NCBI GenBank assembly: GCA_964648865.1
Contig: CAZYLV010000002.1
Span: forward strand, 15,272-79,271
Source: an uncultured Gammaproteobacteria bacterium
GTDB lineage: Bacteria; Patescibacteriota; Patescibacteriia; 2-12-FULL-57-11
Length of the DNA stretch: 64,000 bases
Reading direction: 5' to 3'
A program made the translations under genes and the position numbers. The notes under the pieces were generated by a model. The model was not told the origin of the DNA. It worked only from the letters and a program-made list of their open reading frames with translations, and made no database searches. Positions 1,371-61,135 of the stretch are shown here, piece after piece (the first letter of the stretch is position 1; each line of letters starts with the position of its first letter).

Positions 1371-1407
1371 TACGGAGGGCCCTCGTTTTGGTACGGTGCG
1401 GCGGTCT

Positions 1408-29706: not shown

Positions 29707-30348
29707 ATGTTCACGCCCACCGTCCAAGTGCAGAACGCCCATTACGGCGGCGCCTACGACCATAAGGCGCGGTGGTTGAATTACTGGTACCAGATCCGTG
29801 AGGTGCTGGCGGCCAAGCCGGCCACGGTGTTGGAGATCGGTCTCGGCGGCGGGCTGGTGGCGGCGTATCTGCGCGCACAGGGCATCACCGTGACGACGAT
29901 GGACATCGACCCGTCGCTCACGCCGGACGTCGTCGGCTCCATCACGGCCATCCCGCTGCCGGACGCCTCCTTCGACGTCGTCCTCGCCGCCGAGGTCATC
30001 GAGCACATCCCGTTCGAGGAGGTGACGACGGCGCTCACGGAGATGGCGCGCGTCTCCAAAAAGACGGTCGTCGTCTCGACGCCGGACAGCCGCAGGACGT
30101 TGCTGTCGTTCGATGCCAAGCTGCCGTTCCTGCCGGCGGTGCGGCTGTTCCTCAAGGTCCCGTCGCTGCGCCGCCACGCCTTCGACGGCCAGCACTATTG
30201 GGAGATGGGCAAGCGCGGCTATCCGTACCGCCGCTTGGCCGCGGCTGCGGCCGTCGCCGGGCTCGTGGTGGAACGCCATTTCGTCCCCCAGGATTGCCCC
30301 ACCAAACACGTCCTCCGTTTCCGCAAGACGGCCGCCGCCCATGCCTGA
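29707..30348 (+). CDS. Class I SAM-dependent methyltransferase
   Basis: VLEIGLGGGLVAAYL motif I, FDVVLAAEVIEHIP. Confidence 0.7.
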   Translation: MFTPTVQVQNAHYGGAYDHKARWLNYWYQIREVLAAKPATVLEIGLGGGLVAAYLRAQGITVTTMDIDPSLTPDVVGSITAIPLPDASFDVVLAAEVIEHIPFEEVTTALTEMARVSKKTVVVSTPDSRRTLLSFDAKLPFLPAVRLFLKVPSLRRHAFDGQHYWEMGKRGYPYRRLAAAAAVAGLVVERHFVPQDCPTKHVLRFRKTAAAHA

Positions 30349-31483: not shown

Positions 31484-32451
31484 ACGCATCCATGGAGCGC
31501 GTCCGGTGCGCCGTCTGCGACGTCGACGATACCGCCGTCGTCGCCACCAAAGGCGACCTCACCGCCGACATGACCAACGTCGTCTGCCGCCGATGCGGTT
31601 TGGTGTACCTCAATCCGCGTCCGACCGAGGCCGCGTACGACGCCTTCCACGTCGAGGACTTCCTGGTGCAGCGCCACGGCATCAGTTCCACGGCGGACGT
31701 CGCCTACAAGGTGAAGGGGAGCGAGTTGACGATGAAGTCCGCGGTCCGCGATTTCCTGCGGCCGTCGTTCCGGCCGGGCATGCGCGTGCTCGACGTGGGA
31801 TGCGGCATCGGCACGCTGCTGCACCTCATCCGGCAGGAGGTGCCGGATGCCACGGTCCAAGGCATCGAGCTTGCGACGGTCGATGTCGAAGCCGCCAAGT
31901 CCTTCTACGGCCTGGATCTCTTCACCGGGAGCCTGGAGCAGTATGCCGCCGCGCATCCCGAGGACCGGTTCGATCTCATCATCCTCCACCACACCTTCGA
32001 GCATCTCCCGGCGCCGCGCGCCGCGCTGCGCACCATGGAGCGGCTGCTGGCGCCGCGCGGGGAGCTGTTCATCGCCGTGCCGAACGTCATGAACATCCGC
32101 AAACGACCGGAGATCTTCTTCCAGATCGCGCATCCCTACAGCTACTCCCCGGCCACGTTGCGGAAACTCCTGGCGCTCGAAGGGTTCGCTCCGGTGCGCT
32201 ACAACCGGCGCGGTGCCTACCCCGGCGGCATGGAAGTGCTTTCCCGCCGCACCGCCGAGGCCGAGCGGCCGTTGCCGCCCGAGGCCATGCGTGAGGGCGA
32301 CACCGCGGCCGCGGTGCTGCGCCACGTGCGCCTGTCGCGCGTCCGCTTCGCGGCGCTCCGCACCTTGCGCGACGTCTCGCTGTTCCTGTTGCCCAAGCGG
32401 CTGCGCTACAAGGTCGGCACGGCCGTGAGCACGAAGCTCAAGCGCCTATGA
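31480..32451 (+). CDS. Zn-ribbon + class I SAM-dependent methyltransferase (paralog family A, member 1)
   Basis: N-terminal C-x2-C...C-x2-C (RCAVCD...CRRCGL) then VLDVGCGIGTL...LILHHTFEHLP. Paralogous to 43765-44691. Confidence 0.75.
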   Translation: MNASMERVRCAVCDVDDTAVVATKGDLTADMTNVVCRRCGLVYLNPRPTEAAYDAFHVEDFLVQRHGISSTADVAYKVKGSELTMKSAVRDFLRPSFRPGMRVLDVGCGIGTLLHLIRQEVPDATVQGIELATVDVEAAKSFYGLDLFTGSLEQYAAAHPEDRFDLIILHHTFEHLPAPRAALRTMERLLAPRGELFIAVPNVMNIRKRPEIFFQIAHPYSYSPATLRKLLALEGFAPVRYNRRGAYPGGMEVLSRRTAEAERPLPPEAMREGDTAAAVLRHVRLSRVRFAALRTLRDVSLFLLPKRLRYKVGTAVSTKLKRL

Positions 32452-34271
32452 AGATGCCGTGGTGGGTCGTCGCGCTCGGCGCCGTCGCCGCGACCATGCT
32501 CTTCAACCTCACCCAGATCCTGGTGCTCATCGAGGTGCTGCGGCAGGGCGGGGCCTACAACTACTTCACGTTCCTGGGGCCGGACGCGATGGTCAACCTC
32601 GCGCCGATGCTGCGCGACGTGCTTGATGGCCATCTGCGCATCGCCGACGGCCGCGTCCTCGAGCATGTGCACCTGCCGAGCCTGTGGTCGAACGTGACCC
32701 CGTACCTCGTGGCCCCGTTCATCCTCGCCGCGCGCTCGGTGCCCTACGGATTGTTCGTCGGCCGCATCGTGGTGGTCCTGGTCTCCTTCCCGCTGGCGTA
32801 CCTCATCGCCCGGCGGCTGGTCGGCGACGCACGTTGGGCGATGGCGTACGCGTTGCTCTTCTTCGGGCCGACCTTCCTGGGGCTCTACGCGTTCCCTGTC
32901 TCGCGCGAGGGGATCGGGATCCTCTTCCATGCGATCGTGCCGTTCGTCGAGCCGGCGCATGGGGTGCTGCTGAGCAAGTACAACAGCTTCTCCGTCCTGC
33001 CGACGCTCCCGATCTTCCTCGCCGTGACGCTCTTCCTGCTCGTCTGGCTCCAGGAGAAGAAGCGTTGGGCCGCGGCCGCCGCCGGACTCTCCCTCGGGCT
33101 CCTGCTTTCGACCTACGCCACGAGCGCCATCTATCTCGGTGCGGCGATCGGCATGCTCTTCGTCGGCGCGCTCGTCCGGCGTGCCTGGCGGGACGTACGG
33201 CACCTGCTGCTCCTCGGTCTGGCCGCGTTGCCGACCGGCGCCTACTTCATCGTCAACTACTTCACCATCCGCGCGCTGCCGCACGCCGCGGAGTTCTACG
33301 ATCGGCTGAGCGGCGACATCACGCATGCCTTCCGCTGGAGCGCCTGGCCGGAATACGCGGTGTACGCCGCGCTGGCCGCGGCGGTCGTCTGGGCCGCGCG
33401 GCGCGCGAAGGCGGTCGAGGCAGGGCGGCTCGTCGCGGCGCTGCTCCTCTCCGGCATCGTGGTCTGGAACATCCAGGTCCTGACCGGCTACAACCCGGCG
33501 CCGCCGGTCTGGCGCATCCACCAGATCTTCTTCGGGATGGGCCTGGCGGCGTTCTTCCTCGCGCATCGCCTGGTGGCGGAACTGCGGCAGCGGCGGGCGG
33601 CATGGGGGAAGGCCGCTGTCGCGGTCCTGCTGCTCATCGCCACGAGCGCCACCGTCCAGGTGGTCCGCGCGGAGGTCTCGCTGGCGCGCGACCAGGCGCC
33701 GCGTGCGGCCGTCCCGTCGGCGCTCGAGGCCTCGTTCGTCTGGATCGACGGGCACGCGCCGCGCGACGCCGTCTTCGCCAGCCCCTCGCTCGTCTCCGAC
33801 GCCCTCCTGCCGATGCGCACCCACGCCCGCGTGGTCATGCCGCGGGCCATCACCTCGCCCGCCCCGCAGGAGGAGATCCTGGACCGCTGGCTCGCCACGT
33901 ACGCGCTGTTCGACGCGCCCGTGGAGCGGTTCGAGGCGGCCCTGCGCGGCGATGTCGAGGCGGACGACCCGTACGCCTTCAACGCGGAGAACGGGTTGCC
34001 GATCCAGCTCTACGAGTACGCCTTTTTCCCGCACGACCTGGATTACTTCCGCACGCCGCGCAAGAAGGCCATCCCCGAGGACGTCATCCGGACGTTGCTC
34101 GAACGGTATCGGGCGTATCCCCGCGACCTTTCCGCCATCGCCGGGAAGTACCGGCTCGACTACCTCTACGTCGGTCCGTACGAGGAGCGTTTCGCCGGAC
34201 GCGACTTCGACGCCGAGCCGGGCCTGACCAAGGTCTATGATGCGGACGGCGTGCGCATCTACGGCCTATGA
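32448..34271 (+). CDS. Large polytopic membrane protein, putative GT-C-type glycosyltransferase / polymerase
   Basis: About 10 predicted TM helices in the first ~380 aa, then a ~200-aa soluble C-domain. No named motif recognised. Context: two DPM1-like lipid-sugar synthases in the locus. Confidence 0.4.
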   Translation: MKMPWWVVALGAVAATMLFNLTQILVLIEVLRQGGAYNYFTFLGPDAMVNLAPMLRDVLDGHLRIADGRVLEHVHLPSLWSNVTPYLVAPFILAARSVPYGLFVGRIVVVLVSFPLAYLIARRLVGDARWAMAYALLFFGPTFLGLYAFPVSREGIGILFHAIVPFVEPAHGVLLSKYNSFSVLPTLPIFLAVTLFLLVWLQEKKRWAAAAAGLSLGLLLSTYATSAIYLGAAIGMLFVGALVRRAWRDVRHLLLLGLAALPTGAYFIVNYFTIRALPHAAEFYDRLSGDITHAFRWSAWPEYAVYAALAAAVVWAARRAKAVEAGRLVAALLLSGIVVWNIQVLTGYNPAPPVWRIHQIFFGMGLAAFFLAHRLVAELRQRRAAWGKAAVAVLLLIATSATVQVVRAEVSLARDQAPRAAVPSALEASFVWIDGHAPRDAVFASPSLVSDALLPMRTHARVVMPRAITSPAPQEEILDRWLATYALFDAPVERFEAALRGDVEADDPYAFNAENGLPIQLYEYAFFPHDLDYFRTPRKKAIPEDVIRTLLERYRAYPRDLSAIAGKYRLDYLYVGPYEERFAGRDFDAEPGLTKVYDADGVRIYGL

Positions 34272-35788
34272 CGCCCCGCCTGCTGGTCTTCTTCGTGGAT
34301 GGCGGGACATGGACGCTGCTCAAGCCCTGGATGGAGCAGGGGAAGCTTCCGGCGTTCGCGCGTCTCGCGCGGGACGGGGCGACGGCGACGCTCGAGAGCG
34401 TCATCCCCACCGAGACGAGCTATGCGACGGCGGCCTTCGCGCTCGGCAAGCATCCGGCGGCGCTCGGCGCCTTCGCCCCGGGGTCGCGCGGCTTGATCCC
34501 GGCGACCTCCGAGGGTTTCTCGGGCACACGTCTCTGGGAGGCGCTCGGCGAGGCCGGTCACCGCACGCTCGTCATGGACTTCCCGGGCACCTGGCCGCCG
34601 CGAACGGTGAACGGCGTCTTGTTCACCGGCTTCTTCACTCCCGAGGACGCCGAGGACCACATCGTCCCGCCGGAGATCCGTGCGCGGTATCCCGACTATC
34701 CGCGCGGGGGGAGCGAACTCGTCCGCATGCTCGACCAAGGGAAGGATGCGTTGCGTGACAAGGTCTTCGAGGTCACGCGTCGGCGCTTCGCCGCGTTCCG
34801 GGATGCCTGCCGGCGGGAGCCGTACGCCTTCGCCTGCTTCTACGTGAAGGGGACGGACCTGCTCCAGCACTATTTCTGGGACGATCCGGCGACGCTGCTG
34901 GATTACTGGACGGCCGTCGACGGCATGCTGGCTGAGGCGCTAGCGGACGGCTGGACGCACGTCCTGGTGGCCTCGGACCACGGCTTCGACGCGGCCCCCC
35001 GCACGACGTTCTCCACCAACCGCTGGTTGGCCGACGAGGGCTTCCTGCGCCTCACGGCGCGCTCCGGCGCGGGCGGCGCGGTCCGGCGGTTCCTTGCCGC
35101 GCATCCCGGTCTGGCGCGTGCCTACTACCAAGCCCGGCATCGCCTGGTCGGGTCGCGTCCGGCCGCGCGGACCGCCGTGGCCGCCGACCATCTGGTGGAG
35201 AAGGCCGAAGGCAGCGGCACGGTCAGCAAGGACGTCGACGTCGCCAAGAGCGCGGCCTACGCGCCCGGCGGCGCCCTCAACGGCAAGGGCATCTATCTCA
35301 ACCGCACGGCCACGCCACCCGGGTCGTCGGCGTACGACGAGCTGCGGGAGCGCATCATGGCACGCCTGGCCGCGGTGCGTCTCGGCGATGCTCCGGCGTT
35401 CCGCGCCGTGCTGCGCGGCGAAGATGCCTATCCGGGCACCGAGCCGGCCGCCATCCCGGATATCGTGCTGCAGCCGGTACCCGGACTGTTCGTCGAGGCG
35501 CGGGTCGGTCGGGCGGCCATCGGTCCGCGGGAGACCCGCAGTCGGGCGCTCGGTCATCACCTCGCGTCGCCGGACGGGATCCTCATCTGCCGCGGGCCCG
35601 ACATCGCTCCGGGGGAGCGGGGGACCGTCTCCATCCTCGATATGTACCCGACCGTCCTGGCCTGGTACGGTGTCGGCGGACCTGCCGATCTCTCCGGCGC
35701 GGCCGTGCCCTCGCTGCTCGGGCGTGCTCACGTGTCCGCGGCCGATGACGCCGCCGCGCGTCGGGCGATCGGCGAACTGGACCTCTGA
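34268..35788 (+). CDS. Alkaline-phosphatase superfamily protein (type I phosphodiesterase/nucleotide pyrophosphatase / sulfatase-like), paralog 1
   Basis: LLVFFVDGGTW N-terminal metal-site motif and VLVASDHGFD (SDHG). Confidence 0.65.
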   Translation: MTPRLLVFFVDGGTWTLLKPWMEQGKLPAFARLARDGATATLESVIPTETSYATAAFALGKHPAALGAFAPGSRGLIPATSEGFSGTRLWEALGEAGHRTLVMDFPGTWPPRTVNGVLFTGFFTPEDAEDHIVPPEIRARYPDYPRGGSELVRMLDQGKDALRDKVFEVTRRRFAAFRDACRREPYAFACFYVKGTDLLQHYFWDDPATLLDYWTAVDGMLAEALADGWTHVLVASDHGFDAAPRTTFSTNRWLADEGFLRLTARSGAGGAVRRFLAAHPGLARAYYQARHRLVGSRPAARTAVAADHLVEKAEGSGTVSKDVDVAKSAAYAPGGALNGKGIYLNRTATPPGSSAYDELRERIMARLAAVRLGDAPAFRAVLRGEDAYPGTEPAAIPDIVLQPVPGLFVEARVGRAAIGPRETRSRALGHHLASPDGILICRGPDIAPGERGTVSILDMYPTVLAWYGVGGPADLSGAAVPSLLGRAHVSAADDAAARRAIGELDL

Positions 35789-35789
35789 T

Positions 35790-37181
35790 ATGCCCCGTGT
35801 CTTTTTCTTCGGCGTCGACGGCATGCCTCCGCAATGGGTGCTCGACCGCTGGCTGCCGGAGCTCCCGACCTTCAAGCGCCTGGCCGACGCCGGATGCAGC
35901 GGCCGCATCATGAGCACCGTGCCGCCGACGTCCATCGCCGCCTGGACGTCGATCTTCTCCGGCTGCGACCCGGGGCGCCACGGCATCACCGGCTACGTGC
36001 GGCGTCCGCATCCGCCGTCGGTCGAGATGGGGCTCGTCGACGCCACCGACGTGCGCGTGCCGCGGCTCTGGGACGTGCTCACCGCCCAGGGCAAGCGGTC
36101 CATCGTGCTCAACGTGCCGATGACCTATCCCGTGAGGCCGTTCGAAGGCGTGATGGTCAGCGACTTCCTGACACCCGGCTTCGACGGCCCGAGCGTGCAT
36201 CCCGAGTCCTTCAAGAAGGACATCGTGGACCTGCTGGGACACCCGTACAGCTTCGACGTCTCGGAGTTCGGCGGCTACCGGCGCCTGACCAGCGAGGAGC
36301 TCGTGGAGCGCGTCTTCGCCATGACCGATGAGCATGTGCGTCTGGCAGAGCGGCTGCTCGACGGGCCATGGGACCTTTTCGTCTGGGCGACGCTCGGCAG
36401 CGATCGCCTGCACCACACGCTCTGGCGCTACCTGGATCCGAGCCATCCCCAGCACGAGCGGCACCCGGTCTTCTCCTCGGCCATCCTCGACTACTACAAG
36501 AAGCTCGATGGCGTGCTTGCGCGGATGCTCGAACGCCTGACGCCGGAGACCACGGTCATCATCTCTTCCGACCACGGCATGGCCACGATGCACGGCCGCG
36601 TCAACCTCAACGACTGGCTGTTGCGCGAGGGGTACCTCGTGCTCAAGGACGACTTCGCCGCCGAGGTGCGCGAGGGGCCGAAGAAGCTCGCCCTCTCCCG
36701 GGTCGATTGGGACCGCACCCGGGCCTTCGGGTTGGGCGCGTATGAGGCGCTCCTCTATCTGCATCCGGAGAAGAAGGACCAGGACCCCGCGGCCTACGAC
36801 GCGCTGTTCGCCGAGATCGCCGAGGGGATCGCCGCCATCCCCGGTCCGGACGGGCGCAGGTTGGAGACGGTGGTGCATCGGCTCGACCGCCTCTACGGCG
36901 ACGCCGCGCTTGCCGAGGCGCCGGACGGCGTGGTCTACTTCGATGGGCTGGCCATGGGAGCCAATTGCGACGTCGGCAACAACGGGCTCCACTCCTGGGC
37001 CAATACGGTCGGGCCGGACGACGGCCTGCATGCGCCGGAGGGGACCCTCATCATGAGCGGTCGCGGCGTGCCGCAGCGCGACGGCGTGCGTTGCTCCGTG
37101 ACCGACCTGGCACCGACCATCCTCCGGCTGCTCGATTGTCCCGTGCCAGAGCATATGACCGGCAAGGACATCCTGGTATGA
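35790..37181 (+). CDS. Alkaline-phosphatase superfamily protein (type I phosphodiesterase-like), paralog 2
   Basis: VFFFGVDGMPPQW, TVIISSDHGMA. Paralogous to 34268-35788. Confidence 0.65.
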   Translation: MPRVFFFGVDGMPPQWVLDRWLPELPTFKRLADAGCSGRIMSTVPPTSIAAWTSIFSGCDPGRHGITGYVRRPHPPSVEMGLVDATDVRVPRLWDVLTAQGKRSIVLNVPMTYPVRPFEGVMVSDFLTPGFDGPSVHPESFKKDIVDLLGHPYSFDVSEFGGYRRLTSEELVERVFAMTDEHVRLAERLLDGPWDLFVWATLGSDRLHHTLWRYLDPSHPQHERHPVFSSAILDYYKKLDGVLARMLERLTPETTVIISSDHGMATMHGRVNLNDWLLREGYLVLKDDFAAEVREGPKKLALSRVDWDRTRAFGLGAYEALLYLHPEKKDQDPAAYDALFAEIAEGIAAIPGPDGRRLETVVHRLDRLYGDAALAEAPDGVVYFDGLAMGANCDVGNNGLHSWANTVGPDDGLHAPEGTLIMSGRGVPQRDGVRCSVTDLAPTILRLLDCPVPEHMTGKDILV

Positions 37182-37402: not shown

Positions 37403-37417
37403 TTTTCCACAGAGAGG

Positions 37418-37446
37418 AGACCCTGCCGCTTGGCAGGGTCTTTTGG
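37418..37446 (+). terminator. Rho-independent terminator
   Basis: AGACCCTGCC-GCTT-GGCAGGGTCT stem-loop followed by TTTTGG. Confidence 0.6.
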
Positions 37447-37450
37447 CTAT

Positions 37451-37488
37451 GTCATCATATGTAATGATTAGTAATTACGGGTAATGAG
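37451..37488 (+). promoter_or_regulatory. AT-rich island with three GTAAT repeats at 10-bp phasing (candidate operator/promoter of the phosphonate module)
   Basis: GTCATCATAT GTAATGATTA GTAATTACGG GTAATGAG directly abuts the start codon at 37489. The local AT content is far above the ~70% GC background. Confidence 0.35.
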
Positions 37489-38256
37489 ATGACTCCTCGG
37501 ACTGCCATTATCGTCGCTGCGGGCATGGGGAACCGCCTGCGGCCGCTGACGGAGGATCGTCCCAAGTGCCTGATTGAAGTCGGCGGTCAGACCATGCTGG
37601 AGCGCGCCGTCCGCATCCTGCGTGGCGTCGGCGTTCCAGAATTGGCCATCATCCGCGGCTATCGCGGCGGGCAGATCGCGGTCGACGGCGCGCGGTACTT
37701 CGAGAACCCTGAGTACGCGCACAACAACATCCTCCATTCTGCCTTCTGCGCCGAAGAGGCCATGGCCGGAGGCTTCCTGCTGTCCTACAGCGACATCGTC
37801 TACCGGCCCTCTGTGGCAGAAGCGGCGTGCGCGACGGACGAAGACATCGCCGTGGTCGTCGATCGCGATTGGAAGCGCGCCTACGAGGGGCGTGACCTGC
37901 GCATGGAGGATGAAGCCGAGGTGGTCCTCGACGCCGATGGGGCGATCAGGAAGATCGGCAAGGGGGCGGTCTCGCCGGAGGAGGCGACCGGCGAGTTCAT
38001 CGGCATGGCGACGTTCTCCGGGCGCGGCGCGGACGTCCTGCGCGCGGAGTTCCATCGCCTGCTCGAGGCCTACCGCGGCCGCTTCGATGAGCCGTTCCAG
38101 CGGGCCGCGTCCTTCCGTAAGGCATACCTGACGGACATGCTCCAGGAACTCGTCGACCGCGGGGTGCGCGTCGGCGTGGTCCCTATCCACGGCGGTTGGC
38201 GGGAAATCGACACGCCGCAGGACCTGGAGCGCGCCAGCCGATTGTTCGCTTCATGA
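37489..38256 (+). CDS. MobA-like/LicC-like nucleotidyltransferase (sugar-/alcohol-phosphate cytidylyltransferase candidate)
   Basis: AIIVAAGMGNRLRPLTEDRPKCLIEVGG N-terminal NTP-transferase signature. About 255 aa. Confidence 0.7.
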   Translation: MTPRTAIIVAAGMGNRLRPLTEDRPKCLIEVGGQTMLERAVRILRGVGVPELAIIRGYRGGQIAVDGARYFENPEYAHNNILHSAFCAEEAMAGGFLLSYSDIVYRPSVAEAACATDEDIAVVVDRDWKRAYEGRDLRMEDEAEVVLDADGAIRKIGKGAVSPEEATGEFIGMATFSGRGADVLRAEFHRLLEAYRGRFDEPFQRAASFRKAYLTDMLQELVDRGVRVGVVPIHGGWREIDTPQDLERASRLFAS

Positions 38257-38260
38257 CCGT

Positions 38261-39610
38261 ATGACGGACCTCCGCAGGAAACGGGAAGGTGCGCTGCTGC
38301 TCGCCGTCCTCAACGACCTCAAGCGCAACGACGAGGTCGCGGCGCAGGAGCTCGGCGTCCCGCTCGAGGAGCTGCGTTCGTGGCTGCGCGGCGATGCCGA
38401 GATGCCCCGCGCGGCGAAGGAACGCGCCGCCGCCATCTGGCCGGTCAACATCCGGGACCTCGAGGTGGTCGAGGATGACGCGCCCGACGGGGTCCGCATC
38501 ATGCGCGCCGCGGAGTCGGAGGCGAGCGAGCGCATCCTCTCGCGCGCCGGCACGCCCTACTACGCCTATCGCGACACGGCCATGTCACGTACCGCGGCGT
38601 TCCGTCCCGAGTGGATCGCGGAGCTGGTCTCCGTCGACGGCGCCGACGCGGACGACCCGGCCGTCCAGTGGAACAACGGCCATCTCCTGCACCAGTTCAC
38701 CTACTTCATCGGTCCCGTCAATTTCTATTATGTCGAGGACGGGCAACGACGCGTCGCCGCCATGGAGACCGGCGATACCATGTACATCACGCCGTTCGTG
38801 CCGCATTCCTTCACGACGCGTAGGACCCCCGAAGGGACACGCGGGCTGATCCTGGCGCTGACCTTCGGCGGGCGGCTCATCGGCGACGCCCATCAGGAGC
38901 TCTCCGTGCTCGGCGAGCGACGCGCCCGGGCGTTGCGCCTGGGGGATGCCGTGGGCGACCAAGGGACGGCCGAGCTGCTGCGGCGCCGCATGCGCGACGC
39001 GCTCCACGCGCAGGATTCCTTGGCGGCCGCGAGCGGCGTGCCGCAGGACCGCCTCGCCGCTCTCCTCTCCGGGGCGCGCGCCTCGCCGGACGAGTTGCGG
39101 TCGCTGGCGGCGGCGCTGGGCGTCAATGTCCGCGACCTCCTGGGGCACGATGCCTCGGAGCCTGCCGTCATCATCGAGAGGCGCGACGCCGGGGAGGAGC
39201 GGGGATCCTCCACGGCCACGGTCCGCCCCCTGGCCGGTACCAGTCGGATGCCGGACATGCGGGCCTTCGAGCTGACGCTCCCGCCCGGCGATGGGACGCA
39301 CGGCCTCGAGACGGACCTGCACCAGTACGGCTACGTGCTCGCCGGGAAGGTCGCCCTGACCTGGGACGCCGACGGCACGGAGCGGCGCGAGGTGTTGGCG
39401 CAGGATGACTCCTTCACCATGAAGCCCGGTACGCCGCATCGCCTCATGGCCACGGACGGGCCGGCGCGGCTCCTGCTCCTGCGCATCGGCGGGGCGCTCT
39501 CCGGTGATGCGCGGCTCGAACTCTCGGCCATCGACGCCGGCGGCATCGGTCGGGCCGTCTCGGAATCGACGCAGTGGTACACGCCGTCCGGTTCGCGCGG
39601 CGTCTCATGA
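38261..39610 (+). CDS. Bicupin non-heme-iron oxygenase of the HEPD/MPnS/HppE family (tandem HTH-like + cupin repeats); MPnS-like candidate
   Basis: 449 aa with two repeats of a helix-turn-helix-like segment plus a cupin barrel. The first cupin has a putative metal site H141-x3-Q145...H182. It sits inside the Ppm-Ppd-ADH phosphonate module. Confidence 0.55.
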   Translation: MTDLRRKREGALLLAVLNDLKRNDEVAAQELGVPLEELRSWLRGDAEMPRAAKERAAAIWPVNIRDLEVVEDDAPDGVRIMRAAESEASERILSRAGTPYYAYRDTAMSRTAAFRPEWIAELVSVDGADADDPAVQWNNGHLLHQFTYFIGPVNFYYVEDGQRRVAAMETGDTMYITPFVPHSFTTRRTPEGTRGLILALTFGGRLIGDAHQELSVLGERRARALRLGDAVGDQGTAELLRRRMRDALHAQDSLAAASGVPQDRLAALLSGARASPDELRSLAAALGVNVRDLLGHDASEPAVIIERRDAGEERGSSTATVRPLAGTSRMPDMRAFELTLPPGDGTHGLETDLHQYGYVLAGKVALTWDADGTERREVLAQDDSFTMKPGTPHRLMATDGPARLLLLRIGGALSGDARLELSAIDAGGIGRAVSESTQWYTPSGSRGVS

Positions 39611-39629
39611 ACCGACCTGATCCAACCAT

Positions 39630-41273
39630 ATGACCAAAGCCAAGAAGCTCCGTGCGCTCCTCGCCGATCCCGCAAAGACCATCGTCATCGCCGGCGCCCA
39701 TAACGGCCTGTCCGCCAAGCTGGTGGAGGAGGCCGGCTTCGAGGGCGTCTGGGCGAGCGGCTTCGAGATCGCCACCTCCCACGCCGTGCCCGACGCCAAC
39801 ATCCTGACGATGGACGACACGCTGCGCGCCGCCAAGGACATGAACGACGCCGTCGGCATCCCGGTCATCGCCGACTGCGACAACGGTTTCGGCAACGCCA
39901 TCAACGTCATCCGCACCGTGCAGGAGTTCGAGCGTGCCGGCATCGCCGCGATCTGCATCGAAGATAACCAGTTCCCCAAACGCTGCAGCTTCTATTCCGG
40001 CGTGAAGCGCGAGCTGGAATCCGTGGAGGAGTTCGCCGGCAAGATCCGCGCCGCCACGCAGGCCCGCAAGGACCCGGACTTCGTGGTCATCGCCCGCACC
40101 GAGGCCATCATCGCCGGCTGGGGCGTGGAGGAGGCGCTGACCCGCGCCAACGCCTACGCCGACGCCGGCGCGGACATGGTGGTCATCCACTCCAAGTCGC
40201 CGGATCCGGGCGAGATCGCCGAGTTCGCGCGCCGCTGGCAGCGCCCGGTGCCGCTCATCGCCATCCCGACCATCTACAAGGACACCTCGGTCGACGATCT
40301 GGCCAAGATGGGCTTCAAGCTCGTCATCTTCGCCAACCACGCCATGCGCTCGTCGATCAAGGCCATGCGCGAGACGCTGCAGACGCTCCGCACGAGCAAC
40401 GTCGCCGCCTCGGTCGAGGACCGCGTGGTGCCGCTCACCGACGTCTACCAGATCGTCAGCCTGTCCACGATGAAGGAACAGGAAGCGGCGTTCCTGCCCA
40501 AGTCGCCGCCGCCCACCAAGGCGCTCATCCTCGCGGCGGGCGCGCCGCACAACGGACTCGAGGCCGAGGGCAAGCCTGTCTGCCTGCTGGAGGTGAAAGG
40601 CAAGACCATCCTGGACCGTCAGCGCGAGCTCTTCGAGTCCATGGGCATCGGCTCCGTGGCATTGGTGCGCGGCTTCGGTGCCGACCGCATCAGCGCGTCC
40701 GGGATCCGCACCTACGACAATGCCGCGTTCGACAGCACGCTGAACGCGGCCTCGCTGCTCGCGGCCGCCGACGAGCTCGACGGTCCGATCGTCATCTCCT
40801 ACGGCGACGTCATCTTCAACCGCGAACTCCTGCAGCAGCTGCTCGAACGTCGTGCCGACGTGACCGTGGCCGTCGATCACTCCTGGCGCGAGCGCTATGC
40901 CGCCAACAAGCAGGTCCGCCCCGGCACCGAGCTCGTGGTCACGGAACGCACGCCGGCCGTGACCAACGGGTATCTGGTGGACGTCGGTCCGAACCACGTG
41001 AAGGCGGTCGGTGCGGCCGTCGACCCGGCTGCCGCCAATGCCGAGTTCATCGGCCTGGCACGGTGCACGGAACGCGGTGCGACGCTGCTCGCCGAGACGC
41101 TCAAGGAGCTCAAGGCGCGCGACGCCGCGCGCTTCGCCAAACTGCGCCTGGCCGACGTCCTGGCCGAACTCGTCGCGCGCGGCGTCGCCGTGGAGACGCT
41201 CGACGTCTACAAGGGCTGGATCGACGTCGACACGCTGCTCGACTACCGCGCGGCGCTCGCCGAGGTCGCCTGA
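39630..41273 (+). CDS. Fusion: PEP mutase-like (ICL/PEPM superfamily) N-domain + LicC/PntC-like cytidylyltransferase C-domain
   Basis: N-terminal PEP-mutase fold (AGAHNGLSAKLVEEAGF, IADCDNGFGN, ICIEDNQFPKRCSF). C-terminal NTP transferase (LILAAGAPHNGLEAEGKPVCLLEVKGKTIL). The EDKx5NS motif is altered to EDNx5CS. Confidence 0.7.
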   Translation: MTKAKKLRALLADPAKTIVIAGAHNGLSAKLVEEAGFEGVWASGFEIATSHAVPDANILTMDDTLRAAKDMNDAVGIPVIADCDNGFGNAINVIRTVQEFERAGIAAICIEDNQFPKRCSFYSGVKRELESVEEFAGKIRAATQARKDPDFVVIARTEAIIAGWGVEEALTRANAYADAGADMVVIHSKSPDPGEIAEFARRWQRPVPLIAIPTIYKDTSVDDLAKMGFKLVIFANHAMRSSIKAMRETLQTLRTSNVAASVEDRVVPLTDVYQIVSLSTMKEQEAAFLPKSPPPTKALILAAGAPHNGLEAEGKPVCLLEVKGKTILDRQRELFESMGIGSVALVRGFGADRISASGIRTYDNAAFDSTLNAASLLAAADELDGPIVISYGDVIFNRELLQQLLERRADVTVAVDHSWRERYAANKQVRPGTELVVTERTPAVTNGYLVDVGPNHVKAVGAAVDPAAANAEFIGLARCTERGATLLAETLKELKARDAARFAKLRLADVLAELVARGVAVETLDVYKGWIDVDTLLDYRAALAEVA

Positions 41274-41274
41274 T

Positions 41275-42384
41275 ATGGTGGACGCACGCGCATTCGTCTC
41301 GGCGCTCGGCGCGGAAGGGTACCGGCTCGCCAGCGGCGTCCCATGTTCGCTGCTGGACACCTTCCTCGAGGCGCTCGATGGCCAGCAGGAGATCGCCCAC
41401 GTCCGGGCGGCCAACGAGGGAGACGCCCTGGCGATCGCCGGCGGCGCCGTCATGGGCGGGACGCCGGCGGTCGTCTATCTGCAGAATTCGGGACTCGGCA
41501 ACCTCATGAATCCGCTGACATCGATGACCGAGATGTACCGGTTGCCGACGCTCATGATCGTCACCTGGCGCGGCAACCCCGCGCGCAGCAAACCGGACGC
41601 ACCCGAGCACGCGTTGATGGGGGAGAAGACCCCGGCCTTCCTGGAGCTGTTCGGCATCCCGCACCGCATCATGCCGGACGACGACGCCGGCGCGCGCCAG
41701 GCGCTTGCCGAGATGTCCGCCGCCGCCCGTGCGCGTCGCGGCACCGCGGCGCTCATCGTCCCGGAAGGGCTGTTCGCCGCGGCGCATGCGCATGAGGCGC
41801 ATCCCGGCTTCACCCGGCAGGACGCCATCCGTGCCCTCCTCGGCCGCGCCCGTCCGGACGATCTCTTCGTGGCGACGACCGGCTTCACGGCGCGCGACCT
41901 CCAGGCCGTCCGCAAGGAGCGCGGCGAGACGAGCGACCGTGATTTCTCGATGATCGGCTCGATGGGGTGCGCCGCACCGATCGGCCTCGGCTTGGCCCAA
42001 GCCTCGGGCAAGCGCGTGGTGGTGCTCGACGGCGACGGCGCGCTCCTGATGCGCATGGGTGTCCTCTCGACGATCGGCTCCCTCCGCCCGCGGAACCTCG
42101 TGCACGTCGTCTTCGACAACGCCGCATACGAGAGCACCGGCGGCCAGGCCACGACCAGCCCGACCACGGACTTCGCCGCCGCCGCGCGCGCCTGCGGCTA
42201 CCCCGAGGCCGTCGTCGCGACGGATGCCGTGGCTGCGGCGCAGGCCTTCTCCGATGCGCCTGGCCTGCGCATGATCGTCTGCAGGGTCCCCGGCAGCACC
42301 GGCGCACCGGCCCCGCGCATCGCCGCCGAACCGGCGGACATCGCCCAAGACATCCGGCGCAGCGTGGGCGCTCCCCCCTTGTGA
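41275..42384 (+). CDS. ppd: Phosphonopyruvate decarboxylase (ThDP-dependent; sulfopyruvate decarboxylase-like family)
   Basis: Single-chain alpha+beta ThDP enzyme, 369 aa. GDGALLMRMG ThDP-binding motif. Adjacent to the PEP mutase-like gene. Confidence 0.7.
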   Translation: MVDARAFVSALGAEGYRLASGVPCSLLDTFLEALDGQQEIAHVRAANEGDALAIAGGAVMGGTPAVVYLQNSGLGNLMNPLTSMTEMYRLPTLMIVTWRGNPARSKPDAPEHALMGEKTPAFLELFGIPHRIMPDDDAGARQALAEMSAAARARRGTAALIVPEGLFAAAHAHEAHPGFTRQDAIRALLGRARPDDLFVATTGFTARDLQAVRKERGETSDRDFSMIGSMGCAAPIGLGLAQASGKRVVVLDGDGALLMRMGVLSTIGSLRPRNLVHVVFDNAAYESTGGQATTSPTTDFAAAARACGYPEAVVATDAVAAAQAFSDAPGLRMIVCRVPGSTGAPAPRIAAEPADIAQDIRRSVGAPPL

Positions 42385-43496
42385 CCTCCTTCCGCTTCCG
42401 CAACGCGTCGGTGACGAGCGGCGCAGGCGCGCTCGAGGTCCTGCGCACGTCGGCGCTGGACACGCGCGTCTTCGTCGTCTCCGGCCGGCATGTCGTCTCC
42501 GATCAGGTCCTGCATCGGCGCGTCACGTCGGCGCTCGGCGAGCGCCTCGTCGGTTGGGAAGCCGTCACGCCGCTTCCGTCCGAGGAGGGGGTCGGCCGCG
42601 TCGCGGCGCGGGCACGCGCGTCGGCCGCCGACACCGTCGTGGCCATCGGCGGCGGCTCGGTCATCGACACCGCCAAGACGGTCTCCGTGTTGGCCGCCAA
42701 CGCGATGGACGTGCGCGACGCGCTCGCCGGCGCCCTGGCCGACGCCACCGTGAAGCTGCGGACCGTCGCCGTGCCGACGCTGTGCGGCAGCGGGAGCGAA
42801 GTGACCCCGTTTTCCGTCCTGTACGCCGACGCGAGGAAGCACTCGCTCGAGTCGCCCCTGCTCCAGCCGGATATCGTGCTGGCGGATCCCGACGTGGTGC
42901 TCGCGCCGCCGGCGCCGCCCGCCAGCGCCGCCTTCCTGGATGCCGTCGCTCAAGCCGCGGAATCCTTGTGGGCCGTGCGTGCGGATGCCGAAAGCGAGGG
43001 GCACGCCGGGCGCTGCCTCGCGGCGGCCGCGGCGTTCCTCCAGCAGGACGATCCCGCGCTGCGCCGGGCCTCGCTCGGCGCGCTGTCGCTTGCCGGCGGC
43101 ATGGCCATCGCCATCTCCCGCACCACTGCGGCGCACGCCTTGTCCTACCCGTTGACCATCCTCCACGGCGTCCCGCACGGCGTCGCCTGTGTCGCGACGC
43201 TCCCGGCGGTGCTCGCCTGGAACGCCGACGTGCAGGAGGAGGACTGTCTCCATCCCCGCGGATCGGCCTTCGTGCGGGAGCGGGTGGCCGAGATCGCGGC
43301 ACTGCTGGACACGCTGGGCGGCGTGACGGGCGTCGCGGAGCGGTTGCGGGTGCCGGTGCGGTTGGGGGAGTGGGGCATCGGCGAGCGCGACCTGGATGCC
43401 TTGGTGGCGGCTTGCGCCAACCCGGAGCGCATGAACAACAACCCCCGCAGGATCACCGCGGAGGCCGTCCGTGCGCTGTACGCGCAGGCGCTCTAA
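42381..43496 (+). CDS. Iron-containing (group III) alcohol dehydrogenase, phosphonoacetaldehyde reductase candidate (PhpC/FomC/Pdh-like)
   Basis: VAIGGGSVIDTAK, GSGSEVT motifs. GTG start overlapping the upstream stop (GTGA). Confidence 0.7.
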   Translation: MTSFRFRNASVTSGAGALEVLRTSALDTRVFVVSGRHVVSDQVLHRRVTSALGERLVGWEAVTPLPSEEGVGRVAARARASAADTVVAIGGGSVIDTAKTVSVLAANAMDVRDALAGALADATVKLRTVAVPTLCGSGSEVTPFSVLYADARKHSLESPLLQPDIVLADPDVVLAPPAPPASAAFLDAVAQAAESLWAVRADAESEGHAGRCLAAAAAFLQQDDPALRRASLGALSLAGGMAIAISRTTAAHALSYPLTILHGVPHGVACVATLPAVLAWNADVQEEDCLHPRGSAFVRERVAEIAALLDTLGGVTGVAERLRVPVRLGEWGIGERDLDALVAACANPERMNNNPRRITAEAVRALYAQAL

Positions 43497-43708: not shown

Positions 43709-43764
43709 AGACTGGGGGCAACTCACGGGCGATGATAGCACCGTCCCAGGACGGTGTCGATGGT

Positions 43765-44691
43765 ATGGAACACGTGCGATGCGCAATCTGCGGGACCGCC
43801 GACGCGGCGGTCGTGGCCACGCGCGGCTCGCTCGAAAAGGGCGGACCGACGCTCGCGATGCGCAACGTGATGTGCCGCCGGTGCGGCCTCGTGTACATGG
43901 ATCCACGGCCGACCGCCGAGGAATACGCCGAGCAGTATCGGCGGTTCGAGAAGCACCGCTACGGCATCGACAGCCAGGAGGGGGCCGACGCCTTCGTCGC
44001 CGAGCGCGGCGCGCGCTTCGATAAGGCGGACCTGATCCGTTTCGTCGCCTCGCATGTCGCGGTGCCTCCGGGGTCGATCCGTGCGCTCGACGTGGGCTGC
44101 GCCCATGGCCTCTTCTCGGAGCAGCTCAAGCGCACGCTCGGCTGCGCGGTGCAGGGCGTCGAACCCTCGGAGCGCCTGGCTGCCGCGGCCCGCAAGCGGG
44201 CGGAGATGGACGTCTTCGTCGGCACTCTCGATGCGTTCCTGAAGGCGCACCCGGATGCGGGCGGCTTCCACCTCATCGTGCTGAGCCATGTCTTCGAGCA
44301 CTTCCCGGATCCGCACGCCGCGCTCGAGGGCCTGCGTCGGCTGCTCGCGCCCGAGGGCGTGGTCTACGTCGAGGTCCCGGATGTCTCCCATTTCAAGAAG
44401 ACCATGGACCGGTTCTTCGACCTCTTCCACCCCTACTCCTACAGTCCGGCGACGCTCTCGCGGCTGTTGGAGCGCAACGGATGGAAGGCCATCGGCCGCG
44501 CCGACACCAAGAAGTACCGCCTCCAGGCCATCATCGCTCCGGAACGCCATCCGATGCCCGCGACCCGTTGGACCGAGGGAGGCGACCCGCGCGCGCTGAT
44601 GGCCGCGCTGCGCGCCAAGCGGCGTTGGGACGCCCTGCGGCGCGTGGCTGCGCCGATCGCGCGTCTGGTCCCGCGCCGACCCGTCGCATGA
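43765..44691 (+). CDS. Zn-ribbon + class I SAM-dependent methyltransferase (paralog family A, member 2)
   Basis: MEHVRCAICG...CRRCGLVYMDPRPT, then LDVGCAHG motif I. Clear paralog of 31480-32451. An alternative start lies at 43732. Confidence 0.75.
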   Translation: MEHVRCAICGTADAAVVATRGSLEKGGPTLAMRNVMCRRCGLVYMDPRPTAEEYAEQYRRFEKHRYGIDSQEGADAFVAERGARFDKADLIRFVASHVAVPPGSIRALDVGCAHGLFSEQLKRTLGCAVQGVEPSERLAAAARKRAEMDVFVGTLDAFLKAHPDAGGFHLIVLSHVFEHFPDPHAALEGLRRLLAPEGVVYVEVPDVSHFKKTMDRFFDLFHPYSYSPATLSRLLERNGWKAIGRADTKKYRLQAIIAPERHPMPATRWTEGGDPRALMAALRAKRRWDALRRVAAPIARLVPRRPVA

Positions 44692-46052
44692 CCCTCTCAC
44701 GCACCGTCCTCTCCGGCGTCTCGACGCTCGGCGGAGCCAACGTGGCCACGCGGCTGCTGTCCTTCGTCTCCGTCCTGCTCATCACCCGCGGCCTCTCGCT
44801 CGAGGGCTACGGCATGTTCCAGCTCGCGTTGGCCACCGTCGCCCCCGCGGCCACCTTGACCGCATGGGGGCTCGAGGCCGTGGTGCTCTCCGAAATCAGC
44901 CGCGCCGTCGGCACGCAAGCGTTCGGCCGCGCCAAGCGGCTCATGCTGAGCTTCGCGCGCAACAAGATCCTGCTCTCGGTGGCGCTCGTCGCCCTCGCCT
45001 GGCTCTTCCGGCCGCTGGTCGTCGCCCGCTTCGGCGGGTTCCTCAACGAGTACTTCGTCATCCTCAGCGTCTGGGTCGTCGCCAACGAGGCGTTGGCTGC
45101 CGTCGCGCTCCTGCTCCATGCGCACACGCGGTTCAAGGCCATGGCGGCCATGACCGTGGCCGAGCCGATCTTCCGTTTCGCGGCGGTCCTGGTGCTCTGG
45201 CAGCTCAAGGGCTTCACGCCGGTCACCGTCATCGGCGCGTACCTCGTGGGCAAGGCCGGCAGCGCGCTGATCGGCCTGCCGGCCATGGCGCGCGTGCTCG
45301 CGGGCTACCGAGGCGTCGCCGCCGACCCCGAGCGGACGTTCTGGCAGATGGTCCGCGGCCACGGCAAGTGGGGGGCCGTCTCCCAGGCCATCATCCCGCA
45401 GATCGACAGCACGCTGCGTCCGTGGATCACCAATCTCATGCTCGGCACCCAGGCCGTGGCCTTGGTCTCCGTCTCGACGACGGTCTTCTCGGCGCTGACC
45501 AGCCTCCTGCCGGTGCAGAAGGTGCTCATGCCCATCGTGGCGCGTGAGAGCGCTGACCGCCGCAAGGCCGCGCTCATCGCCCAGAAGGCGTCCAAGTACA
45601 GCCTCCTTGCGTACCTGGCGTTCGGCGCCGTGGCGGCGCTCGCGGTCGGGCCGTTCGTGCGGTTCTTCTTCCCCTACTACGGGGATTCGATCCTGCTCAT
45701 CCTCATCACGCTCCTGCGTTTGCCGTTCACCGCCGTCACGCCCGCCCATGACGCGCTCTTCAACGCCTATCGTCTGCAGAAGGGCTTGGCGGGCCACACT
45801 TTCCTCAAGCTGGTGTCGGACGTCACGCTGCTGCCGCTATCCATCCTGGCGTTCGGCATCGCCGGCATGTATTGGGAGCGCCTGCTCAACGTCGCGCTGA
45901 CGACGGTCCTGCGCGAGCGCTACCTGCGGTCACGGGCCCATCTCGCGGCCATCTCGTTGCGGAACCTCGTCGTTTTTGATAATACCGACGTCATGCTGCT
46001 GAAGATGGTGACCTCGCGGTTGCCCTTCTTCCGGCCACGTCCTTCCTCGTGA
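44688..46052 (+). CDS. Wzx-like polysaccharide/oligosaccharide flippase (MOP superfamily)
   Basis: About 12 predicted TM helices, the 'polysaccharide biosynthesis protein' family pattern. ATGA overlap. Confidence 0.65.
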   Translation: MTLSRTVLSGVSTLGGANVATRLLSFVSVLLITRGLSLEGYGMFQLALATVAPAATLTAWGLEAVVLSEISRAVGTQAFGRAKRLMLSFARNKILLSVALVALAWLFRPLVVARFGGFLNEYFVILSVWVVANEALAAVALLLHAHTRFKAMAAMTVAEPIFRFAAVLVLWQLKGFTPVTVIGAYLVGKAGSALIGLPAMARVLAGYRGVAADPERTFWQMVRGHGKWGAVSQAIIPQIDSTLRPWITNLMLGTQAVALVSVSTTVFSALTSLLPVQKVLMPIVARESADRRKAALIAQKASKYSLLAYLAFGAVAALAVGPFVRFFFPYYGDSILLILITLLRLPFTAVTPAHDALFNAYRLQKGLAGHTFLKLVSDVTLLPLSILAFGIAGMYWERLLNVALTTVLRERYLRSRAHLAAISLRNLVVFDNTDVMLLKMVTSRLPFFRPRPSS

Positions 46053-46056
46053 TCCC

Positions 46057-47463
46057 ATGCGCACCATCCTGATCATGCTCTCCCGCGGGATCGTCGCCCG
46101 GAACATCCTCCGGACGGGCGTCTTGGACATCCTGCTCTCCGATCCGGACGTCCGCCTCGTCGTGCTCGTACCGCCGAACATCCCGGACTATTTCCGGAAG
46201 GACTTCGACCATCCACGCGTCATCCTCGAGGAATCCGAGGAGGTCCGCTACGGGCTGTTCCATCGGAAGGTCTTCGCGCCGGTCTACCAGAAGCTGGTCT
46301 ACACCGAGACGGCCAAGTTCTTCATGCGCTACGGCGGCCGCATCCCCAAGGGCAACAAGAGCCCCGTCGCGGCGTTCTTCGGCCACATCGGCGCCAGCAT
46401 CATCTCGCGGATGCCCTTCCTCAAGCCGATCTTCCGGGAGCTCGAGTTCCACCTCTTCCCGTACCACGGCTTCGACCGCTTCTTCGAGAAGTACAAGCCG
46501 GACCTGGTCGTCTCGACCATCGTCAAATCAAAACGGGACATCGCCATCCTCAAGGCGGCCAAGCGCTTCGGCGTGCCGCACATCAGCATGGCCCGGAGCT
46601 GGGACAACCTCGACCGTATCCTCATCGCCGTGCGGCCGCAGAAGATCATCGTCCAGAACGAGGTCATGCGCGAGCTGGCCGAGACGCTCCACGGTATCCC
46701 AAAGGAAGACGCCTTCGTCTCCGGTTTCCCGCAGTTCGACCTCTATAACGACCGTTCGCTGCTCATGTCGCGCGCCGACTTCCTCGCGTCGCTCGGGCTG
46801 GACCCCGCGCGCAAGGTCATCTTCTTCGCCTCCGAGGGCGTGTGGGCGCCGCACGGGGACCATGTGGTCGCGGCCCTCATCGCGCGCATGCGCGGCGGCG
46901 GGTTCGCCGAGCCGGTCTCGCTCATCGTCCGTCCGCACTATTCCGACCGCGCCGACGACGGTTCGAGCCGCTACGACCGCTTCGTGGGCGAGCCCGACGT
47001 CTTCGTGGACCGCAACCAGCGCATGCTCCGGTTCTTCGTCGACAAGTGGGACGCCTCACGCACGGAGATGGTGCACCTCATGAACGAGCTTGCGCATGCC
47101 TCCGTGCTCGTGACATACGCCACGACGATGGCCATCGAGGCGGCCATCTTCGACACGCCCGTCGTCAACGTCGCCTTCCGTTTGCCTGGGGAACCCAAGG
47201 ACGGGCCGTTCTTCGGCATGTTCTACGGCTCGTCGCACTACTCGAACGTCGTGAGGACCGGCGGCGTCCGCCTGGCAACGTCCGAGGAAGAGCTGGTGCG
47301 GTACGTGGATGAGGCGCTGCTGCACCCGGAGACGTTGCGCGCCGAGCGCCGCGTCATCGTGGAGCGCTTGGCGTACGGCAACGACGGGAAGTCCGGTGAG
47401 CGCGTCGGCCGTTTCATCCTCACATGCCTGCGGGAGCTGCCCTTCCGCCGCGTCATCGCCTGA
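46057..47463 (+). CDS. Putative GT-B-fold transferase, TagF/CDP-alcohol glycerophosphotransferase-like (uncertain), paralog 1
   Basis: 468 aa soluble protein with two Rossmann-like halves. Paralogous to 51006-52391 (shared MxxxxxxSRGxxARNxLxT N-terminus and PVVNVAF). Family assignment by weak resemblance only. Confidence 0.35.
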   Translation: MRTILIMLSRGIVARNILRTGVLDILLSDPDVRLVVLVPPNIPDYFRKDFDHPRVILEESEEVRYGLFHRKVFAPVYQKLVYTETAKFFMRYGGRIPKGNKSPVAAFFGHIGASIISRMPFLKPIFRELEFHLFPYHGFDRFFEKYKPDLVVSTIVKSKRDIAILKAAKRFGVPHISMARSWDNLDRILIAVRPQKIIVQNEVMRELAETLHGIPKEDAFVSGFPQFDLYNDRSLLMSRADFLASLGLDPARKVIFFASEGVWAPHGDHVVAALIARMRGGGFAEPVSLIVRPHYSDRADDGSSRYDRFVGEPDVFVDRNQRMLRFFVDKWDASRTEMVHLMNELAHASVLVTYATTMAIEAAIFDTPVVNVAFRLPGEPKDGPFFGMFYGSSHYSNVVRTGGVRLATSEEELVRYVDEALLHPETLRAERRVIVERLAYGNDGKSGERVGRFILTCLRELPFRRVIA

Positions 47464-47466
47464 CCT

Positions 47467-56978: not shown

Positions 56979-57011
56979 ATCTGGGCTCCATCCTGGCCCA
57001 TCCGGGCAGCC

Positions 57012-57040: not shown

Positions 57041-57060
57041 CGCGCGGAACCCCTGTGGAC

Positions 57061-61134: not shown

Positions 61135-61135
61135 T

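Follow-up and report, generated by a model that had tools for sequence, protein, structure and literature searches.

Introduction

In waters starved of phosphorus, aerobic methane arises from methylphosphonate, a compound for which most of the known producers are marine archaea and SAR11. The described enzymes closest to the subject of this paper are the methylphosphonate synthase (MPnS) of Nitrosopumilus maritimus (6B9S/6B9T) and the class II hydroxyethylphosphonate dioxygenase (HEPD) of Streptomyces albus (SaHEPD; 6B9R). More distant are PhpD, the class I HEPD of Streptomyces viridochromogenes (3G7D, 3GBF), and HppE (1ZZ6), which belong to the same cupin-based fold family and act on related phosphonate substrates. 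Here, we analyze a gene of this family at positions 38261 to 39610 of a 64-kb stretch of bacterial DNA (the window, by which we mean the whole stretch at its full length). Given the fold, the residues, the operon, and the association with a nucleotidyltransferase that we observed, we consider it likely that this gene encodes an MPnS-type nonheme Fe(II) oxygenase serving a methylphosphonate glycan pathway, for which we infer the catalysis, the substrate, the cytidine monophosphate (CMP) activation, and the attachment to glycan.

Several bacterial orders were listed for MPnS by Lockwood et al. in 2022 (PMC9381506), a 2025 study documents the enzyme in groundwater (PMC11978286), and it is also reported from wetland sediments. 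According to the groundwater study, which cites Born et al. 2017, methylphosphonate synthesis requires a 2-His-1-Gln triad plus a Phe and an Ile. For cell-surface phosphonates, Rice et al. (2019; PMC6697681) set out a logic of "nucleotidyl activation." The fusions of phosphoenolpyruvate (PEP) mutase (Ppm) to a nucleotidyltransferase that they describe carry the motif EDKx5NS, and proteins without the motif were filtered as presumed non-Ppm.

The window oxygenase resembles N. maritimus MPnS in its bicupin fold (template modeling [TM] score, 0.81 to 0.84), its His/Gln/His positions, the Phe and Ile beside the Gln, and its substrate-contact residues, and it likewise lies beside Ppd, alcohol dehydrogenase (ADH), nucleotidyltransferase, and alkaline-phosphatase-superfamily genes in a glycan context (PMC9381506). 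It differs in being only ~42% identical, in belonging to a separate deep clade, in coming from a 70% GC source, and in having a Ppm-like partner with a noncanonical loop and a C-terminal NTP_transf_3 fusion. SaHEPD shares the fold, the His/Gln/His positions, the substrate residues, and the same ~42% identity, but has Tyr163/Gly184 for Phe/Ile and Met/Val for E121/M174 of the window oxygenase; loci of this Tyr/Gly type, unlike the window, are mostly actinomycete clusters without an adjoining nucleotidyltransferase. PhpD is 23% identical in structural alignment (TM score, ~0.7), and in HppE, which has only one cupin, Glu takes the place of Q145 of the window oxygenase. As in the published PntC/LicC and Ppm-nucleotidyltransferase arrangements (PMC6697681; Fom1), a PF12804 nucleotidyltransferase is fused to a Ppm-family gene and another one adjoins it, although the fused Ppm-like domain of the window reads EDNQFPKRCS where the published fusions carry EDKx5NS.

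Results

Fold and active site of the oxygenase

The oxygenase gene is the second in a five-gene operon (37489-43496) that follows an AT-rich intergenic region. We mapped these genes from gene calls on identical Logan contigs and from family scans of the window:

37403-37488, plus strand: AT-rich intergenic region preceding the operon, 86 bp, 44% GC versus 70% for the window
37489-38256, plus strand: LicC/PntC-like nucleotidyltransferase, 255 amino acids (aa) from the ATG at 37489, N-terminal AAGMGNRL; Pfam NTP_transf_3, 4e-13
38261-39610, plus strand: MPnS-type bicupin Fe(II) oxygenase, 449 aa; predicted ligands H141/Q145/H182, second shell F155/I176, MPnS-state columns E121 and M174
39630-41273, plus strand: PEP-mutase-like domain (residues 1 to 290; Pfam PEP_mutase family) with a C-terminal NTP_transf_3 domain
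41275-42384, plus strand: Ppd (phosphonopyruvate decarboxylase), 369 aa; TIGR03297, 346 bits, above the cutoff of 312.5
42381-43496, plus strand: Fe-dependent alcohol dehydrogenase (Fe-ADH), PhpC-like; Pfam Fe-ADH, 9e-35; start overlaps the Ppd stop

The open reading frame (ORF) at 38261-39610 begins with ATG and has a GC3 of 0.90, which marks it as the coding frame; ORFs that overlap it in other frames, minus strand included, are the usual artifacts of high-GC DNA. Pfam recovers only HTH_3 (residues 251 to 293) and Cupin_2 (338 to 406) in the protein. An AlphaFold2 model built on 18 homologues (pLDDT, 85.9; pTM, 0.79) has the order helix-cupin-helix-cupin, with helices at residues 2 to 67 and 206 to 293 and strands at residues 78 to 202 and 303 to 409. 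Foldseek places this model closest to MPnS (6b9t/6b9s; TM score, 0.81 to 0.84), next to SaHEPD (6b9r; 0.82), and then to PhpD (~0.7). In phmmer searches of PDB sequences, residues 8 to 446 match N. maritimus MPnS (6b9s) at an E value of 6e-101 (342 bits), followed by SaHEPD (9e-88; 298 bits) and HppE (~4e-6); PhpD was not retrieved among PDB sequences at an E value of ≤1. The similarity to MPnS is far beyond chance, and these analyses bear out the original prediction, made from the letters of the DNA, of a HEPD/MPnS-family bicupin with two helix-turn-helix (HTH)-like plus cupin repeats.

Our alignment of 88 family members took in the window oxygenase with five of its closest relatives, MPnS and SaHEPD from the PDB, and 80 loci found in species-representative genomes. 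H141, Q145, and H182 align with H148, Q152, and H190 of MPnS, in columns that are invariant in 84 family members. The PDB sequences read H148/Q152/F162/I184/H190 in MPnS and H149/Q153/Y163/G184/H190 in SaHEPD, so that the oxygenase and MPnS share the signature HQFIH where SaHEPD has HQYGH. The original prediction had placed H141, Q145, F155, I176, and H182 exactly, and its numbering of the MPnS and HEPD positions agrees with the PDB sequences. Its match to an MPnS signature held for the ligand triad and for F155/I176, which are in the MPnS state. The Gln ligand is also present in the class II HEPD of S. albus; since SaHEPD has this Gln, the Phe/Ile pair discriminates MPnS and the Gln triad does not. 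Iron binding through E176, which it ascribed to HEPD, is a trait of the more distant class I enzyme of the PhpD type only; the closer class II enzyme, 6b9r, has the same His/Gln/His positions. The 2-His-1-Glu triad of class I HEPD and HppE is absent from the oxygenase, in which Q145 aligns with the Glu of HppE.

Exactly four columns separate the Phe/Ile from the Tyr/Gly sequences: E/M at 121, F/Y at 155, M/V at 174, and I/G at 176 (window numbering). The oxygenase agrees with the Phe/Ile group in each of these columns (E121, F155, M174, and I176), and every one of the 34 Tyr/Gly-type sequences differs from it there, Y163/G184 of class II HEPD being among the replaced positions. K21, R95, Y103, N138, and W439 are invariant across the family and align with K28, R102, Y110, N145, and W449 of MPnS, which we take to be contacts of the substrate, 2-hydroxyethylphosphonate (2-HEP). 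The Gln-adjacent Phe/Ile pair used as a marker in groundwater (PMC11978286) is present as F155/I176.

The marker residues also vary elsewhere in the family. A Marine Group I thaumarchaeote (L043) has an archaeal sequence within the MPnS clade that carries the HEPD-type Tyr/Gly, and SAR202/Chloroflexota sequences (L036, L044, and L050) have a hybrid Tyr/Ile. These exceptions may be natural switches between product outcomes.

Phylogeny, distribution, and the nucleotidyltransferase link

A neighbor-joining tree resolved three family clades; as it has no outgroup, it does not order their branching. The Tyr/Gly clade (bootstrap, 100) holds all Actinomycetes and some Acidobacteriota, and the main Phe/Ile clade (bootstrap, 88) holds archaea, Chloroflexia, Myxococcota, Planctomycetota, and others. 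The third, small clade (bootstrap, 100) consists of the window oxygenase, five relatives (P0002 to P0006), and one Balneolaceae metagenome-assembled genome. Among full-length relatives, the nearest is 60% identical. A contig of 67.8% GC (L096) carries a partial gene that is 74% identical and keeps Phe/Ile. In a scan of species-representative genome contigs, which held no copy of the window, the closest matches are 46 to 48% identical.

The family is small. An exhaustive search of 1.84 billion cluster representatives returned 170 clusters at an E value of ≤1e-30, and among the best 150 of these, 102 carry HQFIH and 26 carry HQYGH. Phe/Ile homologues occur in Chloroflexia, Acidobacteriota, Myxococcota, Planctomycetota, Balneolaceae, Elusimicrobia, Omnitrophota, and others, and Joint Genome Institute (JGI) annotation already names some homologues "methylphosphonate synthase." With these homologues, the orders of Lockwood et al., and the groundwater sequences in hand, the view that MPnS is tied to marine Thaumarchaeota and SAR11-type organisms is outdated, and the "new lineage and context" that had been proposed for the window gene was an overstatement. 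Because every high-GC Actinomycete sampled has the HEPD-type signature, a Phe/Ile carrier of 70% GC is unusual but not unprecedented in kind: the oxygenase is rich in GC and divergent, and it belongs to a clade with few members within a known enzyme family; it is not a new kind of enzyme.

The gene upstream of the oxygenase, which most likely starts at 37489 rather than at 37525, has LicC (1jyk; 6.5e-9) as its closest PDB entry. Its predicted role is to activate the phosphonate by forming a CMP conjugate. Among the 80 representative loci, homologues of this standalone nucleotidyltransferase lie near 31 of 43 Phe/Ile loci versus 1 of 33 Tyr/Gly loci, and this sole Tyr/Gly locus falls inside the archaeal clade. 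In Chloroflexia and Limnocylindria, a LicC-like nucleotidyltransferase is fused N-terminally to a Phe/Ile MPnS homologue, giving proteins of ~700 aa (P0014, P0020, P0026, P0040, and P0069; L016 to L019, L024, and L028); along its whole length, the standalone window nucleotidyltransferase shares 45% identity with the N-terminal domain of P0040, a fusion of 702 aa. The window arrangement fits both the nucleotidyl activation logic of Rice et al. (PMC6697681) and the MpnS neighborhoods of Lockwood et al. (PMC9381506). This association supports a route from PEP through 2-HEP to methylphosphonate and on, by two putative last steps, to CMP-methylphosphonate and a glycan ester. The window nucleotidyltransferases also have weak NCBIfam matches to inositol-1-phosphate cytidylyltransferase/DIPP synthase.

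The operon and its Ppm-like enzyme

The five genes (LicC-like nucleotidyltransferase, MPnS-type gene, Ppm-like/nucleotidyltransferase fusion, Ppd, and Fe-ADH) are joined by gaps of 4 to 19 bp or by overlaps. The AT-rich region before them contains a G+C hairpin followed by TTTT at about 37417-37445 and a sigma-70-like site, TTGGCA-17-CATCAT, at 37430-37458, and is likely the start of the phosphonate operon. The GC content of the operon (70.2%, against 69.6% for the window) gives no compositional sign of recent horizontal transfer. All five operon proteins are acidic (predicted isoelectric point [pI], 5.2 to 5.8), against a median pI of 8.1 for the window, whose proteome is not halophile-like.

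A Ppm-like/Ppd/ADH module making 2-HEP had been predicted at 39630-43496. The module itself is present, with the Fe-ADH predicted to reduce phosphonoacetaldehyde to 2-HEP; the motif of its Ppm-like enzyme is noncanonical, so that synthesis of 2-HEP stays putative. The same operon occurs in the relative L096 at 74%, 88%, and 71% protein identity, with both Phe/Ile and the variant Ppm loop kept, and relatives that are 48 to 56% identical sit in cassettes of an NTP-transferase, MPnS, a CTP_transf::Ppm fusion, Ppd, ADH, and LicD.

The Ppm-like protein is closest to Ppm 5unc (1e-88), with phosphonopyruvate hydrolase (7e-73) and methylisocitrate lyases (~1e-36) farther away. Where Mytilus Ppm has its active-site Asp/Glu/Arg/His residues, presumably the Mg-binding and catalytic ones, the aligned residues are retained in this protein, while its variant loop has a lyase-like K-R-C instead of K-x-N. 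The canonical motif is present in 68 of 72 Ppm homologues beside MPnS/HEPD genes, and within this set the Asn/Cys variant occurs only in the window and in a Woesearchaeota locus (L053). Among the best 120 fusion homologues, by contrast, 119 carry the variant (P0122 to P0240; 51 to 55% identical), with Sorangium, Minicystis, Polyangiaceae, and many metagenomes among the carriers; the named relatives, at 53 to 55% identity, point to Myxococcota. In our tree, the EDN...KRCS variants form one clade inside the Ppm radiation, and surveys that filter on EDKx5NS would drop its members as non-Ppm. Three MPnS operons (those of the window, L096, and L053) have no Ppm candidate other than the variant protein, and as the only candidate there for forming the C-P bond, it provides modest evidence for a working mutase.

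In Sorangium (CP150351 and CP012672 [L092/L093, 8001-12460]) and in L094/L095, the variant fusion lies in a conserved cassette, where it is followed by a split thiamine pyrophosphate (TPP) decarboxylase (170 plus 187 aa) and an IspD-like nucleotidyltransferase; the Sorangium cassettes also have a CDP-alcohol phosphotransferase. This arrangement suggests transfer of a CMP-activated phosphonate to an alcohol, possibly a lipid.

The surrounding glycan locus

A glycan locus takes up the whole 64 kb of the window. Its genes encode three Wzy_C-TPR proteins, many glycosyltransferases of families GT1, GT2, and GT4, AsnB, inositol-1-phosphate synthase, DegT, NeuB with a CMP-sugar synthetase, 2-epimerases, about ten methyltransferases, and CysDN, and the expected company of nucleotidyltransferases and alkaline-phosphatase-family genes was recovered by the gene map and the family scans. 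The features around the operon are as follows:

1303-7981: three tandem paralogues of ~730 to 760 aa, Wzy_C (O-antigen ligase/polymerase) followed by TPR repeats
18126-18857, 22937-23674, 26258-27280, 29707-30348, 31480-32451, 43732-44691, and 53112-55174: S-adenosylmethionine (SAM)-dependent methyltransferases, about ten
18881-20245, minus strand: myo-inositol-1-phosphate synthase
32448-34271: 607-aa protein of unknown family
34268-35788 and 35790-37181, plus strand: two tandem alkaline-phosphatase-superfamily proteins (Phosphodiest, PF01663)
Between this pair and the 44% GC intergenic region: ORF of 74 aa
Directly after the Fe-ADH in gene order: methyltransferase
44688-46052, plus strand: Polysacc_synt flippase
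46057-47463, plus strand: weak TagF-like Glyphos_transf
47467-48936, plus strand: fusion of a CDP-alcohol phosphotransferase and a HAD domain
55213-58272 and 60229-62398, closing part of the locus: nonulosonic-acid module (NeuB, CMP-sugar synthetase, and 2-epimerase) with CysD/CysN

The tandem alkaline-phosphatase-superfamily proteins are candidate phosphonyl transferases or esterases; in locus L007, a homologue of the second (37% identical) lies 2 kb away from the MPnS gene. By inference, the genes at 44688-48936 could use a CMP-phosphonate. About ten SAM-dependent methyltransferases is an unusually large number for one glycan locus. The inositol synthase and the CDP-alcohol phosphotransferase-HAD fusion indicate that an inositol-phosphate decoration may be made beside the phosphonate, and the nonulosonic-acid module with CysDN hints at sialic-acid-like and sulfated glycan residues.

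Some features of the window bear on its source. The best named relatives of CysD are Patescibacteria (65 to 70% identical), which does not agree with the Myxococcota relatives of the Ppm-like protein. A Shine-Dalgarno-like sequence is almost absent upstream of 44 window genes, and the 64-kb window holds no tRNA genes. The high GC and weak AglF/Arch_glmU matches among the window proteins might suggest a haloarchaeon, an origin that we reject on the median pI of 8.1. Exact matches to window proteins came only from Logan SRA contigs and from one 150-kb NCBI contig.

Discussion

We propose that the operon at 37489-43496 would make 2-HEP from PEP through the Ppm-like enzyme, Ppd, and Fe-ADH. The oxygenase would bind 2-HEP at an iron coordinated by H141, Q145, and H182 and cleave its C1-C2 bond with O2. 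F155 and I176 would fix the Gln in place, so that a methylphosphonate radical could abstract a hydrogen atom from bound formate, and the products would be methylphosphonate and CO2 rather than hydroxymethylphosphonate and formate. The CMP conjugate would then be made by the LicC-like nucleotidyltransferase, by the domain fused to the Ppm-like protein, or by both, and a transferase of the locus would esterify the phosphonate onto the surface glycan of the surrounding 60-kb cluster.

Two sets of observations weigh against this proposal, one at the oxygenase and the other at the steps before and after it. At the oxygenase, the mechanistic role that we give to Phe/Ile leans on a secondary citation, that of Born et al. 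2017 in PMC11978286. The protein is about as identical (~42%) to crystallized SaHEPD as to crystallized MPnS, and its clade, whose members are known from sequence alone, is separate from that of the characterized MPnS, at a mean corrected distance of 1.02 to the main Phe/Ile clade and 1.00 to the Tyr/Gly clade. The MPnS call consequently depends on marker residues and genomic context, not on nesting.

A clade placed in this way could consist of enzymes that are class II HEPD-like in practice, releasing hydroxymethylphosphonate and formate, or a mixture of products, from 2-HEP despite their Phe/Ile. We consider this unlikely, since the oxygenase shows the MPnS state in each of the four discriminating columns, and since the nucleotidyltransferase and the glycan locus match the context of Phe/Ile loci, not that of the actinomycete Tyr/Gly gene clusters. 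In addition, Born et al. are reported to have found that introducing Phe/Ile into SaHEPD suffices to turn it into an MPnS. On these markers and this context, an MPnS-type function is well supported over a HEPD-type one.

Before and after the oxygenase, the loop of the Ppm-like protein (residues 111 to 120) is EDNQFPKRCS instead of the canonical EDKx5NS, which replaces K116 and N122 of Mytilus Ppm with N and C, respectively, and the protein scores below the NCBIfam PEP-mutase cutoff (TIGR02320, 296 versus 319.55). The best NCBIfam match of the Fe-ADH, TIGR03405 Phn_Fe-ADH, is, at 177 bits, well below its cutoff of 423.7. No LicD-type transferase was found in the 64-kb window, so that the attachment step is without a clear enzyme, and searches of PDB sequences returned nothing informative for the second alkaline-phosphatase-family protein, the TagF-like protein, or the 607-aa protein.

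The lyase-like K-R-C, the loss of the EDK lysine, the score below the equivalog cutoff, and the presumption of Rice et al. (2019; PMC6697681) that proteins without the motif are not Ppm would all suit an oxygenase that acts on another phosphonate, or on a nonphosphonate analogue, beside an EDN...KRCS enzyme that does not make phosphonopyruvate by the standard route. This explanation appears to us marginally less probable still than HEPD-like chemistry. Ppd passes its equivalog cutoff, and the variants are a clade inside the Ppm radiation that, in the window protein, retains its closest similarity to 5unc and the aligned active-site residues. No other Ppm candidate accompanies the MPnS genes of the window, L096, and L053. 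The residues that bind 2-HEP in MPnS are, moreover, all conserved in the oxygenase.

That the protein is instead an XRE-family HTH-cupin transcription factor sensing a small molecule, or a catalytically dead relic, as its Pfam domains and the label "transcriptional regulator with XRE-family HTH domain" given to homologues by some JGI pipelines might suggest, is very improbable, given its end-to-end alignment to MPnS at 6e-101, its fully conserved metal and substrate ligands, its place between biosynthetic enzymes in an operon kept in relatives, and the fact that HTH-like helices belong to the MPnS/HEPD fold itself.

The proposal of an MPnS-type oxygenase in a methylphosphonate glycan pathway can be taken a step further. 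We tentatively suggest, at somewhat less than even chances, that a noncanonical, monophyletic class of PEP mutase (EDNxFPKRCS, with a lyase-like Cys for Asn122) forms the C-P bond of a methylphosphonate decoration that the operon supplies to the glycan.

The window adds one more likely methylphosphonate producer, with a marker-positive gene in a genome of 70% GC and in a 60-kb surface-glycan locus. It leaves the overall picture unchanged, as such genes are already present in many bacterial phyla in public data, but its divergent clade is useful for testing the reach of the Phe/Ile rule. The variant Ppm-like clade is a more useful lead than the oxygenase: it is large and unstudied, and its function is directly testable through the MPnS operons. 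If the variant enzymes are active mutases, then censuses of phosphonate and methylphosphonate producers undercount them, especially outside the ocean, and the accepted catalytic role of Asn122 would need to be revisited.

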